Source: an uncultured Hormoscilla sp. (GTDB lineage Bacteria > Cyanobacteriota > Cyanobacteriia > Cyanobacteriales > Desertifilaceae). Taken from it: a stretch of DNA of 64,000 bases. Under the pieces are notes generated by a model. That model was given only the letters and a program-made list of their open reading frames with translations, did not search any database and had not been told where the DNA came from. Of the stretch, positions 7,630 through 54,469 are shown one piece after another. Location of the stretch: positions 5,248,001-5,312,000 of the forward strand of contig OZ001293.3 of NCBI GenBank assembly GCA_963921275.4, in the 5' to 3' direction. Every line of letters starts with the position of its first letter. The first letter of the stretch is position 1. The translations under genes and the position numbers were made by a program.

Positions 7630-8413
7630 TGGGTGTGGTCATGCATTAGTTAATAGGGTAGAGAATCAATGCTTCTGGACAGATGTTATAGTCATAATTT
7701 GACAAGACCAAACTGGTGCAAGACCGGACCCAACGCTAAGACCAATAAACCGGGTTTCTCTACAAAATTTGGCGCAACCCCCGCGATATCGGATTTGCGA
7801 AACCCGGTTTCTGGCCCCGACGCGAGGGCCCCCCGAATTACCAACTGATTTTGACCACACCCGTTGTTATAGTGAGCCTAAATTATTTGTGTAAAGATTC
7901 TGGGTAATCAGCGCCCAAACCCTTGCGGGGTAATAATTTCAGCAAACACCTATTGCACAACTCATTACTCCTTCGAGAAATTGATGGTATCGCCGAGGAG
8001 TGGGGAGTGGGGAGATAAGATCGGGGGAGGGTGCGATTCGTTCCCTTACCTTGGACTGGGCGAGCGGGTAGGGCCGGGCTAGTTTCCATTGCCTTAAGAG
8101 TTGCCTTGATAACTGTAGGAGACTGGCATTCTGCTTGCAGGAGACTTGTAATCGGATTAGAGAACAAGTAGATAACAAGTCTCCTACAAGTCGAGAACAA
8201 GTTATATTTAAAAATTAACGAGTTTTCAGAGGTTTTCGATATTTTTCTCTATACTGTAATATATTTTTCTCTATCTTGCGATCTGCTTTTTAAGTTAGGG
8301 GGTAACTCCGATAATTGTCAGCACCACATTTTATAATACAATGAATTACACATAACACAAAAATTAGGAATTATGCATATTACAATGTAATCTGATCTAG
8401 AGGCGATCTATGC

Positions 8414-8647: not shown

Positions 8648-10651
8648 CTACGATCGCTGTCCGAGTAACTTCTCTCGCAGCTGCTTGAGGCGATCGCGAT
8701 ATTTGGCCGCTTTCTCAAACTCCAGATTCTTTGCAGCTTCCTTCATCTGTGCTTCCAACTGGGTAATCACTTCGGGAATTTGTTCTAAGGACAGATCGGA
8801 CACCGGTTCGGAAACTGCTTCTAACTCCCGCACATTCAAGCGCCGGGAAACATCCAGAAATGCTAATATCGCATTACTGGATTTCTTCACAATCGGTTGG
8901 GGAGTAATTCCTTGCATCTTATTATATGCCATCTGAATCCCTCGCCGCCGATCGGTCTCTTCTATGGCCCGCTTCATGCTATCGGTGAGAATATCTCCAT
9001 AGAGGATCGCTTGTCCTCTGACATGACGGGCCGCGCGACCGATTGTTTGGATCAGAGAACGTTCGGCGCGCAAAAATCCTTCTTTATCTGCATCCAAAAT
9101 TGCGACCAGGGAAACTTCTGGTAAATCTAACCCTTCCCGTAACAAGTTGACGCCAATTAGCACGTCAAAATTACCTGACCGCAAATCCTGCAAGATTTCA
9201 ATCCGTTCAATTGATTGAATCTCGGAATGCAGATAGCGCACCCGAATTCCTCTCTCTTCCAGATAGTCCGTTAAATCTTCCGCCATCCGCTTGGTGAGAG
9301 TTGTCACTAACACCCGTTCCGACTTTTCCACCCGGTCTTTAATCTCCCCTAGCAAGTCGTCAACTTGACCTGCTGTGGGACGTACAAATATTTCCGGGTC
9401 AGTCACCCCTGTGGGTCTAATTACTTGTTCGACCACGCCATCTTGGGAAATTTCCAGTTCCCAATCTCCTGGGGTCGCTGAGACAAATATACATTGATTC
9501 ACCTTTTCCCAGAATTCCTCTGCTTTCAGAGGACGGTTGTCAGCGGCGCTGGGAAGACGAAACCCATATTCTATCAATACCTGCTTCCGAGACCGATCGC
9601 CATTGTACATCCCCCGAATTTGCGGTACAGTAACGTGAGATTCATCCACGACTAATAACCAATCTTTGGGTAAATAATCAACCAAACATTCTGGGGGTTC
9701 CCCTGGGTTCCGTCCTGCTAAATGGCGGGAATAGTTCTCCACGCCGTTGCAAGTCCCCACCTCAGACAGCATGTCGATATCGTATTTTGTCCGCTGTTCT
9801 AGACGCTGGGCTTCTAATAATTTACCAGCATGTTCTAATTCTGTCAACCGCCGTTGTAATTCGGCTTTTATCGCCTCACAAGCAGCTTCCAGTCGGTCGG
9901 CGGGAGTGACGAAGTGACGCGCCGGGTAAATATTTACAGCCTCCAGATTCTGGATATTTTCACCGGTTACGGGGTCAACATAGAGAATAGCGTCTATTTC
10001 ATCCCCAAAGAATTCTACTCGAATGATGCGGTCTTCGTAAGCGGGTCCTATTTCCAGGACATCCCCTTTGACCCGGAATTTTCCCCGACCTATGTCTATA
10101 TCATTGCGGCTATATTGGATCGTAGCTAAATCTCGTAGCAGTTGACGTTGGTCTATTTCCGATCCTATCATGAGGGGAATGGAAGCTTTCAGATATTCTG
10201 CGGGAATTCCCAATCCGTAAATGCAACTGATGGAGGCGACGACTATGACATCCCGCCTTTCAAACAGCGATCGGGTGGCGGAATGGCGCAGCATGTCAAT
10301 CTCATCGTTAATGGACGCGGTTTTTTCGATGTAAGTATCGCTGACGGGAATGTAAGCTTCCGGTTGGTAATAGTCGTAGTAGCTGATGAAATATTCAACA
10401 GCATTATGGGGAAAAAATTCGCGCAACTCGTTACATAGCTGGGCGGCGAGGGTTTTGTTGTGGGCCAGAATTAATGTCGGTTTGCCGATTTTTTCAATAA
10501 CGCAGGCCACCGTGTAGGTTTTCCCCGTTCCCGTCGCCCCCAACAGGGTTTGGTAGCGGTTTCCCCCTTGGATGCTGGTGGCTAGTTGCGCGATCGCCTC
10601 TGGTTGGTCTCCCGTGGGTGCAAATGGTGCTTGGATCTGAAATGGTGTCAT
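8648..10651 (-). CDS. uvrB: Excinuclease ABC subunit B
   Basis: [12 protein letters not shown] and GRAARH motifs plus C-terminal UVR coil; likely start [10 protein letters not shown] at 10651, since the longer ORF runs into intron sequence. Confidence 0.97.
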
Positions 10652-10927
10652 AACTGGTAGTTTAATGTGCGATTCGTTCCGGCGTAACTGGACACCAGGT
10701 TCAGGATAGCTGGGTGGGGCAACCCACAACTCAGACGTTATGAGGGTTAGATTCCCGTGCGATTCGTTCCGACGTAACTGAGTAATCAGGATAGTCGGGT
10801 GGGGTTTAAACCCACAACTCAGACGTTATGGGGGTCAAATTCCCCCCTCATGTACAGGGGTGACACCGGTCGGAGGTGCTGTGGAGCAACATCACCATTG
10901 GTGCTAAACGAGGACAAATGTAGGATA

Positions 10928-11939
10928 ACCTAAGTTGCGACCTATTAAAAAAAATATGAATTACCCACTTAGACTTTACAGATATTTGGGATATTTCGTA
11001 GCTTTTGATACAAAATTATATTTTTTTTGTGCTAGACGGCGGGTTGGCTGTTTATAGGTTATAATGTACTAAAATAATAGTTAATTGCTGGGGGATGTAG
11101 ATGATGGAAGATATGATTACAACAATTTTTGTTCTTTGTGACGAGCTACTAAAAGCGTTAAATATAAAAGAAGATCCACAAGTAAAAATGAACAATGCCG
11201 AAGTGATGACAGTCGGATTAGTTGCTGCATATTTTTTCGGAGGACACCACGATCGCTCTTGTCAATTTATGGTCCAACACAAGTATATAAAAAATCTGTT
11301 AAGTAAAAGTAGGTTCAATCGTCGATTACACAATATTGAGGAACCAATTTGGATGTTTTTCTTCCAAGTTATAGCTCAAACATTTAAAGAGCTCAATCCG
11401 GGTCAAGAATATATTCTTGATAGTTTCCCGGTGCCAGTATGTGATAATATTAGGATTGATAGATGCCAAATTTATAACAAGGAAGAATATCGAGGGTATA
11501 TTGCCAGTAAAAAACGTTATTTTTATGGATTAAGAGTTCATATGTTGGTAAACAAAAATGGAAAGCCAATAGAATTTTATCTAGATCCTGGTAGTTATAA
11601 TGATGTTAAAGTTTTGCAATCTTTTGGCTTTGACTTACCATCAAATTCAATAGTTTATGGAGATAAAGCTTATAATGATTATCAATTAGAGGATTTACTA
11701 AAAGAGTCGTCAAGTATAATGTTAAAACCTTTGCGAAAAAAGAACTCAAAAAGAAAAGAATATTCTTGTTTTGAATATATACAAAAAGTAACAAGAAAAC
11801 AAGTTGAAACCTGTTTTAGTCGAATCACAAATTTGTTTCCCAAGTCAATTCATGCTGTTACATCTAAGGGATTAGAGTTGAAAATAATTCTCTTTATCAT
11901 AGCTTTTTGTATCCAATTTTTATAGGTCGCAACTTGAGT
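10928..11939 (+). mobile_element. IS982-family element, copy 1 (1012 bp)
   Basis: TIRs ACCTAAGTTGCGACC / GGTCGCAACTTGAGT; 7-bp TSD TAGGATA at 10921-10927 and 11940-11946. Confidence 0.93.
11101..11925 (+). CDS. IS982-family DDE transposase
   Basis: ILDSFPVPVC, YFYGLRVH, YGDKAY and RKQVET motifs; intact 274 aa. Confidence 0.92.
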   Translation: MMEDMITTIFVLCDELLKALNIKEDPQVKMNNAEVMTVGLVAAYFFGGHHDRSCQFMVQHKYIKNLLSKSRFNRRLHNIEEPIWMFFFQVIAQTFKELNPGQEYILDSFPVPVCDNIRIDRCQIYNKEEYRGYIASKKRYFYGLRVHMLVNKNGKPIEFYLDPGSYNDVKVLQSFGFDLPSNSIVYGDKAYNDYQLEDLLKESSSIMLKPLRKKNSKRKEYSCFEYIQKVTRKQVETCFSRITNLFPKSIHAVTSKGLELKIILFIIAFCIQFL

Positions 11940-13667
11940 TAGGATAGCTTCCAGCCCTGAGGAGGTAACGCCGCTAGGAAAGATGTCCAGGGTTAGAACA
12001 CGCAAATCCTTGTAAGGGTCGTTAAACCAACCGGTGAAATAAGGCTGATACACCGGGCACAAAAGTGCAAAGCAGTTAGAGCTAATGCTGAGAATTCATT
12101 AGTTTTGTACACAAATAACTACTGGCCTAAAGAGGAGACCTAAAGACATCGTGAAATGACGTTTGGGAACGAAGTAACCTCCGTGGTTCTGTCTCTAGGG
12201 ACCAGTCAGATGTGAAGCGCATGACCGCGTGAGGAGAGATGGCCCGAGAAGCCAATGCCTAGGGTAATGCCTATGGATATGCAGACGCGGGTCGGTGATA
12301 GTAGGAAATCTCAGGAGAAAGTAGCTCTCTAAATGTACTAAGCCAGTGGCAACACTAGGAAGTAATGATGGACTAAAATCCTAACCAGGTAAAAACTTGA
12401 TGCCCCCAAGATATGGGCCCTGTTAGTAAAGAGCGGTTTAAGTGGTTTTTTTTCCAGTTCTCCCCCGCAAACCTTCCGGAGTTAGGTAATCAATTGGTTC
12501 ATCGACCAACCAAAAGGAGTAAAATTTCATGAGATAAGGGACAACGGGAGTAATCTCTAGTAATCCTACCCGTGACAAGGCCCTACTACCCAGTAGCCGG
12601 ATGCGGTGAAAGTCGCTCTTTAGGTTCCGAATGGGAGGGTTGGGGAGCGATTCCTAGCTTGACCCCTAATTTCCCTCATGTACAGGGGTGACACCGGCCC
12701 ACCGTTCCGGAAAAATCGGTGCTGTGGAGCAACATCACCATGGTGCTGAGCGAGGGCAAATGTAGGATAGCTTCCAGCCCTGAGGAGGTAACGCCGCTAG
12801 GAAAGATGTCCATGGTTAGAACAGGCAAATCCTTGTAAGGGTCGTTACCCAGAACCGGTGAAATAAGGCTGATACACCGGGCTCAAAAGTGTAAGCAGTT
12901 AGGACTAATGCTGTTGAATCATTAGTTTTGTACACAAACAACTGCCGGACTATAAAGGAGACCTAAAGACATCGTGAAATGACGTTTGGGAACGAAGTAA
13001 CCCCCGTGGCTCTGTCCTTATGGACCAGCGAGATGTGAAGCGCATGACCACGCTCTTAAGGATGGCCTAAGAAGCAAATGCCTGGGGTAATGCCTAGGAT
13101 ATGCAGACGTAGGTCGGTGATAGTAGGAAATCTCAGGAGAAAGTAGTTCTTATATGTGTTAAGCCAGTTCGCAAGAACCAGGAAGCAATGTGGATTAAAA
13201 TCCTAACCGGGTAAAAACATGGAAGCCCCTCAGATATGGGCAATGTTAGTAAAGAGTGGACCCAGGGTTTATCCTGTTATCCTCCATGAAGCTTCCGGAG
13301 TTAGGTACTCAATTAGTCTAGTTGACTGACCAACAAGGAACAAAATTTCATGAGACAAGGGACAACGGGAGTAATCCCTAGTAATCCTACCCATGACAAG
13401 GGCCTATTACCCAGTAGCCGTGTGCGATGAAAGTCGCTCTTCAGGTTCCGAATGGGAGGATTGGGAAGCGATTCCCAGCTCGACCCCTAACATGGATGCA
13501 TCCCAATCTAGCGGCTCGGAGTCTCCGGGAGCGCTACTCGCACTTCTCGGGGGACTCCGGCGAAGCATTCGGATATTAAATTTGTCGATTTATCCCATAA
13601 GCGATCCGCCCGAATGCTTCGCCCCTACAGGTTAATTTGTATAAATGGGATGCTCCCGTTTATTATT

Positions 13668-14856: not shown

Positions 14857-16064
14857 TCACTCCTCTGTCGATAGCCAGTCTTCTAACTTGAGTCCCGGAA
14901 CCCGCAGCATGTCGGAATCGTGAGAAACTAGAGTCAAGTCACGGGCGATCGCCGTTGCCGCGATTAAAATATCTGTATCCTCTAGCAGAGTTCCCTTACC
15001 TCTTAAATCTGCATGAATTAATGCCGCGCTTTCGATTATCTCGATTTCATCTAACAATGCCACGGTAACCGCTTCGCAAAAGCTATTAAAATCAGACAGT
15101 TTCCTGGTAGCATTGGCATACAACAAGCCTCTCTTGGTCTCATAATAGCTGATAATGTGCGATGAGTTCTAGCCTAACGTAGTCAAACGCGGAACGCTAG
15201 CCTAGGAAACTAGTAACTCTGGTATTCATGGGGGTTAAATTCCCTCTCCCCAAGTACGGGGGTAACACCGGTCCTCGGTACTGCGGGGTAACATCACCGT
15301 GGTGCTAAGCGAGAACTTAAATGTAGGATAGCTGGTAGCCTAAACCGGTAACTCCGCGCTCTCAGATGTCCAAGGTTAGAACAAGCAAACCTATGAGAGC
15401 CTCGTAACTATTAATCGGCGAAATAAGGCTTTATGCGCCGGAGACAAAAGTCACTGTAGTTAGTGTTAGTTGTATTATCTGGCTAACAACGTACTCAAAT
15501 AACTACCGGGGTGTAGTAGGAACCTAAAGGCATCGCGCTCCGGAGACCAGGGAACGAAGTAACCCCTCGTGGGCTGTCCAACTGGACCAGTCAGATGTGA
15601 AGCGTATGCCACGAGAGGGAGCCCAAGCCTGCCCTCAAGAAGCTAATGCCTGGGCGGTGTCTGGAGCCTGCCGAGTCCTTCAGGACAAGAGCATGCGGAA
15701 GACGCCGAGTAATGCCCGGGATACGCCGACGTGCGGTGAGGGTGGGTGATAGTAGGAAGTCTCAGGTAGAAAGTAAATCTGAAAATGTTATGAACCCTTC
15801 ACTATAGGTGATGAGGTATAGATGTAAAGGAGCAAAATCGCATGGGATTTGTCGCGAGTGCCGATATGCCTAAGGACAAGCCCCAGCGGTGAAAGTCGCT
15901 CTTTAGGTTCCGAACGGGAGGGTCGGAGGGTGACTTCCGGCTCGACCCCTAATACTTATATACAGCTTTTCTCCCCAAAACTTCGCCTCCTCTATTTTCT
16001 CTCTAATTTTTTCATCATTCTTCAAATGAGCCGCGATAATCTTCGTATCTAGCAGATAACTCAT
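14857..16064 (-). pseudogene. vapC: VapC/PIN toxin split by an antisense group II intron
   Basis: MSYLLDTKII...KLYIS (16064-15954) joins in frame to IISYYETKRG...DILIAATA..LVSHD (15156-14857). Confidence 0.88.
15157..15953 (+). mobile_element. ORF-less group II intron (797 nt) with degenerate DV
   Basis: GTGCGATGAG start; ends CTCGACCCCTAAT; EBS1 ATTATC / IBS1 GATAAT and EBS2 CTATTA / IBS2 TAATAG pair perfectly. Confidence 0.92.
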
Positions 16065-32696: not shown

Positions 32697-34677
32697 GGGT
32701 TTTCACTTTAGGGGGATTTTCCCCCGAGAAGTTCATGCACATTCTGTGTTAAGCATCGCCCCGTGAAAAACGGCTCGACGCTTTGCCAGGGGGAGAGGCC
32801 AAAGACCTGACGATACCAATCGGAAACCGCAGCAAACGAGACTGTTTCCAGGGCTATAGAGATCAGCTCAGCCGTCAACTTAGTGGTGAGGAGGGGCAGG
32901 GCATCTGCGTAGGAGGAGACGAAACATTAGGAGGCTTGTGCGATTCGTTCTAGCCTAACGTGGTCAAACACGGAACGCTAGCCCGGTTTCATTAGCCGGG
33001 AACTCTGACCGCATGGGGGTTAAATTCCCCTCCCCCCAGGTACGGGGGTGACACCGGTCCTCGGTGCTACGAAGCGACATCATCGTGGTGCTAAGCGAGG
33101 ACTCAAATGTAGGATAACTGGCAGCCTAAGCCGGTGACGCCGCTAGGAAAGATATCCAAGGTTAGAGCAGGCAAACATGTGCAAGCCTCGTTATAAGGAA
33201 CCAGCGAAATAAGGCTATATGCGCTGGCCTAAAAAGGAAATGGTAGCTAGTATTAGTTTTAGACTCTGGCTAATATAGTACTCAAATAGCTCCCGGGGTA
33301 TAGTGTGGACCTAAAGGTATCGCGAAATGTTGTTAGGGAACGAAGTAACCTCTCGTGTGCTGTCCATCAGGACAAGTTAGATGTTAAGCGCAAGCCACGG
33401 GGGGAGGGATGGCCCAAGAAGCGAATGCCCGGGGTAATTCCTGGGATAACATCTACAGTAATGTAGATGATGCTGGGTAGCCAGCGCTGACGTGGGTCGG
33501 TGATACTAGGAAGCTGCTGGAATGAGTAATCCTAAAAAGCCACGGAACTAATCCGAAACGCAAGTGGAGGATAAGGTATGGATAACTGGTAAAACTGACT
33601 TGAAAATGGTGATACTAACGGTTATCAGAACAACCACTCGCTAAACCAGGAAAGGGAAGAAAAGACAGGCGGCAAGGGCTAACGGAAGTAATTCCTATTA
33701 AGTCTACCTATGAAAAGGGCCTAGTACCCAGTAGCCGGATGCGGTGAAAATCGCAAGTCCGGTTCCTCAAGGGAGGGTCGGGAAGCGATTCCCGGCTCGA
33801 CCCCATCCACCCATTTTGGTGATGGTGGAATTGAGAGCGTGGCTACATTTTCACGCCTTGTCGAAAGTGACAATCGTACCTACGAAACGTGGCAACAGCA
33901 AATTCAATCGTGGTGGACGAACGGCGGGATGGCACTGTCACTTCATGGTCAGTGATGGAGCTTTCATCACTGATTAAACTGGCCCTAGAAGGCTTGAGCT
34001 GTACTGAGTTCTTCCCTCTCACAGCTGCGTTCCCTGGCGATGCGCTACGGCATCAACAAAGCCCAAACCGCCATTGATACCTTTGAACGACACATTCCTT
34101 CCTTTGCTGAAGGAATTCATGCTCTTGTGCGCTGGGTCAGCGAAGCGTTCCATGCCAAAACTGACGATTTAGAGTTGCAGCAGTGGGTGGTGGAACTTTT
34201 GTTGCCCTGGGCCTATTGGCATCAACAAGCAGACAAAACTAGACAAAAATGACTCAAACTTGTCTATCAGGTGGCTGCGGAGCAAGCCAAGGAGCGCTTG
34301 CTTGCTCACCCTCTCACTCAACAATTAGAGGCGGCGAAGCATCAACAGTGGGTAGAGTGGGCAAACTGGATCGCTCTTAAATATCAACGCACCACCTCAG
34401 CCGTGGAAGGGCGCAATGGCTATTTGTCTGGTATCCATCATAGCTCTCGCGGTTTCTCTGTTCAAACCTTAGCCCTGCTTACCCTCATCCACAATTTTGA
34501 CATCAGACGAGCGGATGGTAGCACGCCTGCACAAGGAATATTTGGGCATTCTTTTCCAAATCTCTCAGAGTGGGTGGTAGACCATATGGGTGAACTCCCC
34601 CGACCACGACAGTCATCTTTAGCACAACCGCTGAATCCCTTACCCAGACTGACTGTCCCGGCTTAAGTTGGTAGCCC
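32697..34677 (+). mobile_element. DUF6399-type transposase-like element, degenerate, containing a group II intron
   Basis: GGDET..L|PILVMVEL, FMVSDGA and YQRTTSAVEGRNGYLS fragments; end TTAAGTTGGTAGCCC. Confidence 0.7.
32938..33808 (+). mobile_element. ORF-less group II intron, sense orientation in its host
   Basis: GTGCGATTCG start; intact DV AGCCGGATGCGGTGAAAATCGCAAGTCCGGTTC; removal restores TTA CCC ATT TTG (LPIL); 3' terminus mutated. Confidence 0.88.
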
Positions 34678-54272: not shown

Positions 54273-54469
54273 GGAAGGCGCCTCGGGACTGCGATCGAGA
54301 ACTACATAGCCCGCGCAGGCGGGCTTTGTTCATGTAGCCCCACCCTTGAGGGTGGGGGTAAAACAATTCACCTGCGCTATGATATAATTGATGATACGAT
54401 GTTATAATAGAAATACGCTATCTAGCCATAGCCAAGTTATGTCAGATATAGGAAGCTGCCTAACTGATT

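Follow-up and report, generated by a model that had tools for sequence, protein, structure and literature searches.

Why should one group II intron lie inside another, with an insertion sequence inside the inner of the two, just ahead of uvrB, and does the inner intron owe its place there to chance or to a specialisation for its own relatives? The locus is in a stretch of 64,000 nucleotides, 'the window', of an uncultured Hormoscilla sp. (assembly GCA_963921275.4, contig OZ001293.3, positions 5,248,001 to 5,312,000). The genome is referred to as G000, its chromosome as C1 and four congeners as G001 to G004.

Architecture of the nest

The original prediction placed a sister intron within an outer intron and an IS982 element, flanked by a TAGGATA duplication, within the sister, and every one of these boundaries is borne out by the sequence (Table 1). 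The block from 10667 to 13491 comprises 2,825 bp and reads, in order, outer intron 1–90, inner intron 1–171, IS982, the rest of the inner and the rest of the outer. Both introns start with GTGCGATTC, and the inner one follows nt 90 of the outer (GATTCCC|GTGCG). When the inserts are removed in silico the outer intron is 911 nt and the inner 895 nt, with 85.6% identity over 736 nt; excision of the inner leaves an outer that is continuous and aligns with it end to end, as befits a twintron. Neither encodes a reverse transcriptase (RT) ORF.

Table 1. Features of the nest and its surroundings, in window coordinates
Feature	Position	Strand	Remarks
uvrB	8648..10651	-	intact, 667 aa; NF003673 1075 bits, TIGR00631 1066 bits
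15-bp spacer	10652..10666		from uvrB ATG (A = 10651, minus strand) to 5' end of outer intron
IBS2 and IBS1 of outer intron	10654-10659 and 10661-10666	+	within the 15-bp spacer
-10-like TAAACT	10664-10659	-	7 nt before ATG; putative promoter element
Outer intron (Y clade), nt 1-90	10667..10756	+	Ia, Ib, Ic1/theta hairpin
IBS2 GGGTTA and IBS1 ATTCCC of inner intron	10744-10749 and 10751-10756	+	both within outer nt 1-90
Inner intron (Y'), nt 1-171	10757..10927	+	ends in first TAGGATA (7 bp, 10921-10927)
IS982-family element	10928..11939	+	1012 bp; transposase ORF 11101-11925, 274 aa
Second TAGGATA and rest of inner intron	11940..12670	+	TAGGATA at 11940-11946; no ORF
Inner guides	EBS2 12023-12028; EBS1 12090-12095; EBS3 12130	+	TAAACC; GAGAAT; A
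Inner domain V, then domain VI	from 12594	+	domain V mispaired
Outer intron, nt 91-911	12671..13491	+	no RT ORF
Outer guides	EBS2 12847-12852; EBS1 12913-12918; EBS3 12953	+	ACCCAG; GTTGAA; T
Outer domain V, then domain VI	from 13415	+	domain V mispaired
Former uvrB leader	13492..13667		palindromic repeat pieces; joined to 10666 in G002-G004
DUF4926	13880-13668	-	upstream of uvrB, co-oriented; Pfam
DUF6883	14228-13971	-	upstream of uvrB, co-oriented; Pfam

Could a genome so rich in repeats have yielded the nest as an assembly artefact, or could homologous recombination have duplicated one intron into another? No single public contig covers the whole block, and the public contigs that lend read support, possibly derived from the source sample, cover the uvrB|outer and outer|inner junctions. 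One of 3141 nt joins uvrB to the outer intron with zero differences, and another of 73 nt, at flank depth, spans the outer|inner junction with 45 and 28 nt on its two sides, 3 short of the 31-nt bridging rule. Against an artefact, the two introns differ by about 15%, contig pieces unique to the inner and to the outer are each at single-copy depth, and the same junction recurs in 14 other nests. As to recombination, a single crossover would be expected to give a permuted order rather than A1–90, B1–end, A91–end. Either origin is hardly credible.

The empty site was predicted to read TTTAAT|ATGGATG in relatives, and that junction is present, exactly and without duplication, in G002, G003 and G004; G001 has a different insert there. 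So precise an insertion in comparison with three of the four congeners, together with a GUGYG-type 5' end, is as expected of a group II intron.

Guides, target hairpin and intron class

Guide sequences EBS1 and EBS2 could be made out in 316 of 466 introns and fall into 38 guide types, a few types misregistered by the regular expression being kept in. Their registers are validated by a mean own-flank match of 8.9 of 12, versus 5.05 on shuffling and 5.8 for the best of 200 shuffles. EBS3 was recognised by covariation, as the sole variable position complementary to exon +1 in 35 of 39 types. The guides of the outer intron match its own site at 6/6, 4/6 and 1/1 positions for EBS1, EBS2 and EBS3. 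The original prediction had the inner EBS1 and EBS2 matching domain I of the outer intron; they do match, though imperfectly, with 5/6 each against GGGTTA-G-ATTCCC|T and 1/1 for EBS3, i.e., 11/13 in all (guides GAGAAT, TAAACC and A). How selective is such a match? Scored out of 12 at this site, two guide types of the lineage here called X reach 11, the inner intron 10 and the 36 other types at most 6, and random guides score 10 with P = 0.0018. The prediction that the target motif is shared by most of the family holds: of the 466 intron 5' ends, 362 have a theta-type motif.

Subdomain names, theta, kappa and zeta included, follow the IIB consensus. In a consensus fold derived from 43 sequences, whose helices covary, the insertion site falls in the 3' strand of the terminal hairpin of Ic1 and IS982 at the foot of the hairpin of Id1, while EBS1 lies in the loop of d3 and EBS2 is without a stem, as expected for domain I. 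At the other end domain VI is recognisable, the introns terminating in ACCCCTAAT and ACCCCTAAC, 9 nt that include the presumed branch A. Family-wide, and in the comparison with the empty site of the G004 intron also, the presumed branch A and the 3' end are 9 nt apart, and most ends read CT or CC, not AY. The assignment to IIB2 is on three features (PMC4649490): a 5' end GUGCGAUUC, a stem-less EBS2 and the presence of EBS3.

An intron swarm

Chromosome C1 carries 466 intron 5' ends and 443 matches to domain V/VI profiles, and the six small contigs have none. ORF-less intron sequence amounts to 5.1% of the chromosome. RT matches number 93, 22 of them with stop-free frames of at least 550 aa, and the one examined, which passes TIGR04416, contains domains of RT, maturase and HNH type. 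A 12-letter 5' pattern has 102, 148 and 94 matches in three congeners and only 2 in G001; a narrower one has 411 in G000. The highest published intron counts found, in such parts of the literature as were consulted, are 101 (PMC8919778) and a figure of at least 150 that PMC4649490 cites, so that this genome carries about 3–4 times as many. Since both the outer and the inner intron score below the Rfam gathering threshold and the 24-bit cut-off given in PMC8919778, censuses of the published kind would miss them.

Several side observations belong here. Other introns of the same family start in the window at 8031, 15157, 20738, 32938 and 34736, and at the Rfam gathering threshold there are just two domain V matches in its 64 kb (926–1003 and 33730–33806). 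Family f0 is nested in itself at nt 767–768, where it has a built-in self target (C1:1325884–1327623, 5180205–5181944 and three more). Lineage X combines one and the same domain I with three or more kinds of 3' half, of 754, 894 and 993 nt (C1:1428685, 1540347 and 2265897), from which it appears that guide modules recombine with different tails. A single Rfam CRISPR-DR28 match is at 54307–54330 of the window, minus strand (36.6 bits vs 35), and a 31-kb contig of the assembly (C3) has 17.6% G+C in a 47% genome and is possibly foreign to it.

Two lineages at one nucleotide

The genome-wide count of twintrons at this position that was originally proposed gives 15 at the very same nucleotide, 13 due to lineage X, the main invader of the theta site in this genome, and two due to Y', the lineage of the inner intron, which is within the Y clade. 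Nests were counted from their junctions, stack pairing having been abandoned as it paired only 357 introns and missed many nests. Of the 14 copies of X, 13 are at the theta site and the other is at a look-alike site outside introns. The two Y' copies are the present one and one at C1:1809083, with 97% identity over 114 nt; the latter ends before its guides, and readable guides are in one Y' copy only. A genome-wide search for Y' copies outside the theta site found none.

Did one lineage give rise to the other? In a tree for which EBS1 and EBS2 were masked, a long branch separates the Y clade from the rest (support 100/100), and X is placed among other families. The data reject a single clade of X plus the inner intron (p-AU 0.0002), and the 30 diagnostic columns in the guide region of the inner intron divide into 25 that are Y-type, 2 X-type and 3 other. 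Judged by tree and columns, then, Y' is not a derivative of X and two lineages use one site, their common target being due, on an unrooted tree, either to convergence or to long retention under selection.

Such mosaic introns do invite another thought, namely that the inner intron is an X insertion overwritten by Y-type gene conversion, or that short tracts brought it guides from X. X does occur with different 3' halves, arms of domain V have been swapped, and each inner guide is one change off its X counterpart. However, the inner intron has no X-type 5' end, the d3 stem beside its EBS1 is Y-type, and the columns and the rejected joint clade tell the same way, so that conversion appears largely refuted already and is very improbable. 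An independent Y' that homes by its guides is the reading retained, but is it a specialist for relatives, as originally proposed? One part of that proposal stands, homing into domain I of a relative as directed by guides (11 of 13 pairs, with both Y' copies at the site). The other part, the specialisation, is less secure: the lineage with most of its copies at one conserved intron site, and so firmly a specialist, is X (13/14). For Y', with 2/2 copies, one truncated, and imperfect guides, specialist status is only suggested. Its guides may instead be tuned to something elsewhere, with the abundant theta motif, present some 360 times, simply a good-enough target: EBS1 and EBS2 have a mismatch each, n is 2, and 7,488 genomic sites reach 10 of 12 for EBS1+2, the score of the nest site, with 559 at 11 or more and so a better fit to the present guides. 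Weighing against this, about 155 of the 2,382 sites with a score of at least 10 and T at +1 are theta sites, so that finding 2/2 there has P of about 0.004; all three Y' guides are unlike those of its Y sisters and yet fit the site; and elsewhere in the genome no Y' copy was found. A Y' without such specialisation is accordingly rated unlikely.

Which hosts are invaded? Leaving Y' itself aside, the Y clade has four members and every one holds an insert, which is X in two cases and Y' in two. Counted with a regular expression that caught 12 of the 15 nests, invaded hosts are 3/3 in Y versus 9/84 among other low-copy introns (p = 0.002, overstated since the hosts are kin) and 0/273 in high-copy families. 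Two of the latter, with 143 and 75 copies, are 99.8–99.9% identical within themselves, and so the invasions are likely older than these big families. Theta sites that match X but hold no insert number about 337. The base at +1 is T in 10/10 intact theta nests vs 144/337 empty sites, where C is found in 193/337, and the own +1 base of both X and Y' is C. X has within itself a perfect site (12/12 for EBS1+2) and self-nests are 0/13. This suggests that X and Y' avoid their own copies by way of that C, i.e., seemingly by one base, but C is common there, family f0 follows its EBS3 in just 92/133 copies, and all of the 78 f1-type theta sites with T are empty. Among 60 relatives the exact theta-junction pattern was not found, three of the four congeners being fragmented drafts.

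A broader reading can tentatively be put forward, though the odds are rather against it: the theta hairpin of IIB2 introns would be a recurring niche for introns parasitic on introns, in which two lineages, and maybe a third in Trichodesmium, have tuned three guides to one nucleotide, both lineages here escaping self-invasion by their own +1 C where an EBS3 of A needs T. If true, such lineages would put the introns they enter out of action, since insertion at theta splits an essential helix, and would hold the swarm in check.

How the nest was formed, and its present state

The stack was probably built in three steps, the outer intron, then Y' in Ic1 (theta), then IS982, an order that follows from an interrupted intron being unable to splice and move. 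Both introns likely reached their sites by retrohoming, directed by their guides and relying on a borrowed RT, for which intact IEP-coding relatives are candidate helpers; mobilisation of ORF-less introns in trans is known from Thermosynechococcus elongatus (PMC2882425). The outer intron would have entered TTTAAT|A on the strand opposite uvrB after the split from G002–G004. Subsequently Y' would have reverse-spliced between outer nt 90 and 91, where the pairing is seen and the reaction is presumed; its present guides have likely decayed, being one transition and one deletion off the best fit. IS982 would then have gone, likely by chance, into a TA-N-TA target in the Id1 arm of the inner intron.

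Members of the IS982 family are about 1 kb, with short inverted ends and a short target duplication, and the element here agrees. Its ends are 18-bp imperfect inverted repeats with 2 mismatches, and its DDE transposase is above the curated cut-off (NCBIfam NF033520, 198.3 bits vs 130). The outer intron holds an uninterrupted homologue of the target site. Full-length copies in the genome number 82, with target duplications mostly of the form TA-N-TA and of 5–11 bp in 79/82; otherwise there is nothing notable in comparison with the family. Its nearest copy being 99.9% identical, IS982 is likely the youngest layer. A preference of IS982 for introns was considered and rejected (8/82 in intron sequence vs 5.1% coverage, P = 0.06).

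Does the ribozyme state bear on activity? Against Rfam RF00029 the inner intron scores 23.8 bits and the outer 18.9, with gathering at 40. Both domain V helices are chimeric, with the 5' arm of one variant and the 3' arm of another; AGC is present and D5 positions 2–9 have 2 non-pairs in the inner and 3 in the outer. The mispaired 3' arm recurs in 52 copies, among them families in which as many as 7 identical 900-mers occupy separate sites, so mispairing may be tolerated, or made good in trans, and need not of itself mean inactivity. The better-matched form is present in a single copy in G000 and also in G003 and G004. Some families with chimeric domain V are also without the GAAA loop, and in others domain V is shortened. 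Today the nest is likely inert: Id1 carries the IS, the Ic1 helix is split, the block is antisense to uvrB, and domain V is mispaired; sequential splicing of the twintron is predicted to fail with an IS in the inner Id1 arm and an orientation antisense to uvrB.

uvrB and its displaced leader

The nest was predicted to be antisense to uvrB and to cut an intact uvrB from its former upstream region. Its orientation is as expected, the empty junction in congeners confirms the separation, and a uvrB dN/dS of 0.12–0.145 versus the four congeners (0.10–0.23 among congeners, by simple counting) is in keeping with an intact gene. Changes private to G000 are 12 synonymous and 7 non-synonymous. A longer uvrB from TTG 10729 was rejected, as the reading frame enters intron sequence. 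Parts of the former leader are repetitive, with as many as 11 occurrences genome-wide. Near the DUF4926/DUF6883 pair is a PIN-domain ORF (14857–15126, minus), the set being toxin-antitoxin-like; G001 is without DUF6883 here.

From where is uvrB then transcribed? TAAACT is at -13 to -8 in G000 and in G002–G004, on the gene side of the insertion, and G001 has the same element with a TG extension 190 nt upstream. Of 1,403 crude ORF starts, 1.4% have TAnnnT at that spacing before them. TAAACT is a bare hexamer with no -35, and the same spacing recurs in only 1/9 more distant loci; a UvrB-based search gave 80 distant loci, of which two were used in the upstream comparison. Scanning for promoters gave a chance result (11 vs 7.9 +/- 3.0), as did scanning for terminators. 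That uvrB keeps a nearly leaderless minimal promoter in the retained 15 bp is about an even proposition, if leaning slightly to the doubtful side.

Whether the nest matters for uvrB is a question apart from its origin. It might have cut off a promoter or read-through from DUF6883–DUF4926, or have supplied a new promoter: the old leader, in which there are other TAnnnT hexamers, is now separated from the ATG by 2,825 bp, and the upstream genes are co-oriented with uvrB. On the other side are a uvrB with no lesion and the modest private changes already given, the hexamer retained by the gene and the chance-level promoter scan. Moreover, leaders of congeners have independent insertions: in G001 (L095) a palindromic repeat insert at the uvrB ATG and in G004 (L093:2387–3259) an f0-like intron, antisense to uvrB and 119 bp further up. 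A consequence for uvrB is thus improbable, and as far as the gene itself can tell no harm from the nest is evident.

Comparison with known systems

Is the theta nest to be met with elsewhere? Among 400 genomes of the order, a theta-twintron pattern had 21 matches, of which 10 are chance matches in coding regions (Rfam on 4 of them gave no intron) and 11 were dismissed on the matched string only; another theta pattern in 400 genomes of the order gave 7 matches, none with an intron-like start in the matched string. At the family level there were 8 matches, and the two intron-like ones (L287 and L289, in G355) are 5' ends duplicated across 100-N gaps and so assembly artefacts. In a metagenome scan, among the matches listed, 0/123 loci fit intron profiles and most resemble tRNA T-arms. 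In the literature searched, no title or abstract indicated that two lineages use one theta site.

The comparisons that follow draw on parts of the papers cited. The closest precedent is Trichodesmium erythraeum, where T.e.I8 is in T.e.I7 (PMC4649490), a cyanobacterial IIB2 host with 5' GUGCGAUUC that also has its inner intron in domain I, adjoining the theta sequence; by published coordinates only, with the sequences unaligned, host nt 154 minus a 62-nt insertion is about 92, against 85–93 here. That is a single locus, within a coding gene, where both introns have IEP ORFs and come from distantly related subgroups (IIB1 in IIB2) and where splicing in sequence was demonstrated. Here, by contrast, ORF-less sister introns make 15 nests from two invading lineages, and the nest is intergenic, antisense and IS-interrupted. 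T. elongatus, with TeI3 (F3) in TeI4 (F1), likewise has an ORF-less family that EBS changes have redirected to a site conserved among related introns, with driver IEPs acting in trans, an IS in an intron (TeI4g::ISEL2f) and mostly intergenic locations (PMC2882425), but there the target lies between two ATGs, in domain IV rather than in the ribozyme core, one family is the invader, and the genome has 28 introns compared with about 440–470 here.

Methanosarcina acetivorans has nests up to five deep from repeated site-specific homing into group II introns, without coding exons (PMC4424553); it is archaeal, the target, going by the title of PMC1370365, is the intron ORF, and the contrast is with X, whose perfect 12/12 self site is self-invaded 0/13 times. 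The 'zombie' twintron sdh3i349g2 of Lycopodiaceae makes domain I invasion known in plant mitochondria too (PMC7049729), and there the host was shown to splice despite its insert. Seen beside these, the nest itself is a fossil of an already known type of twintron, and what is new, as its guides and phylogeny indicate, is a second lineage, Y', landing on the nucleotide used by X in a hairpin widespread in the family. Its value is that of a natural replicate, two ORF-less lineages at one nucleotide of a ribozyme core, and with it one can test whether the parasitism of introns on introns is convergent and whether it keeps the expansion of introns within bounds.
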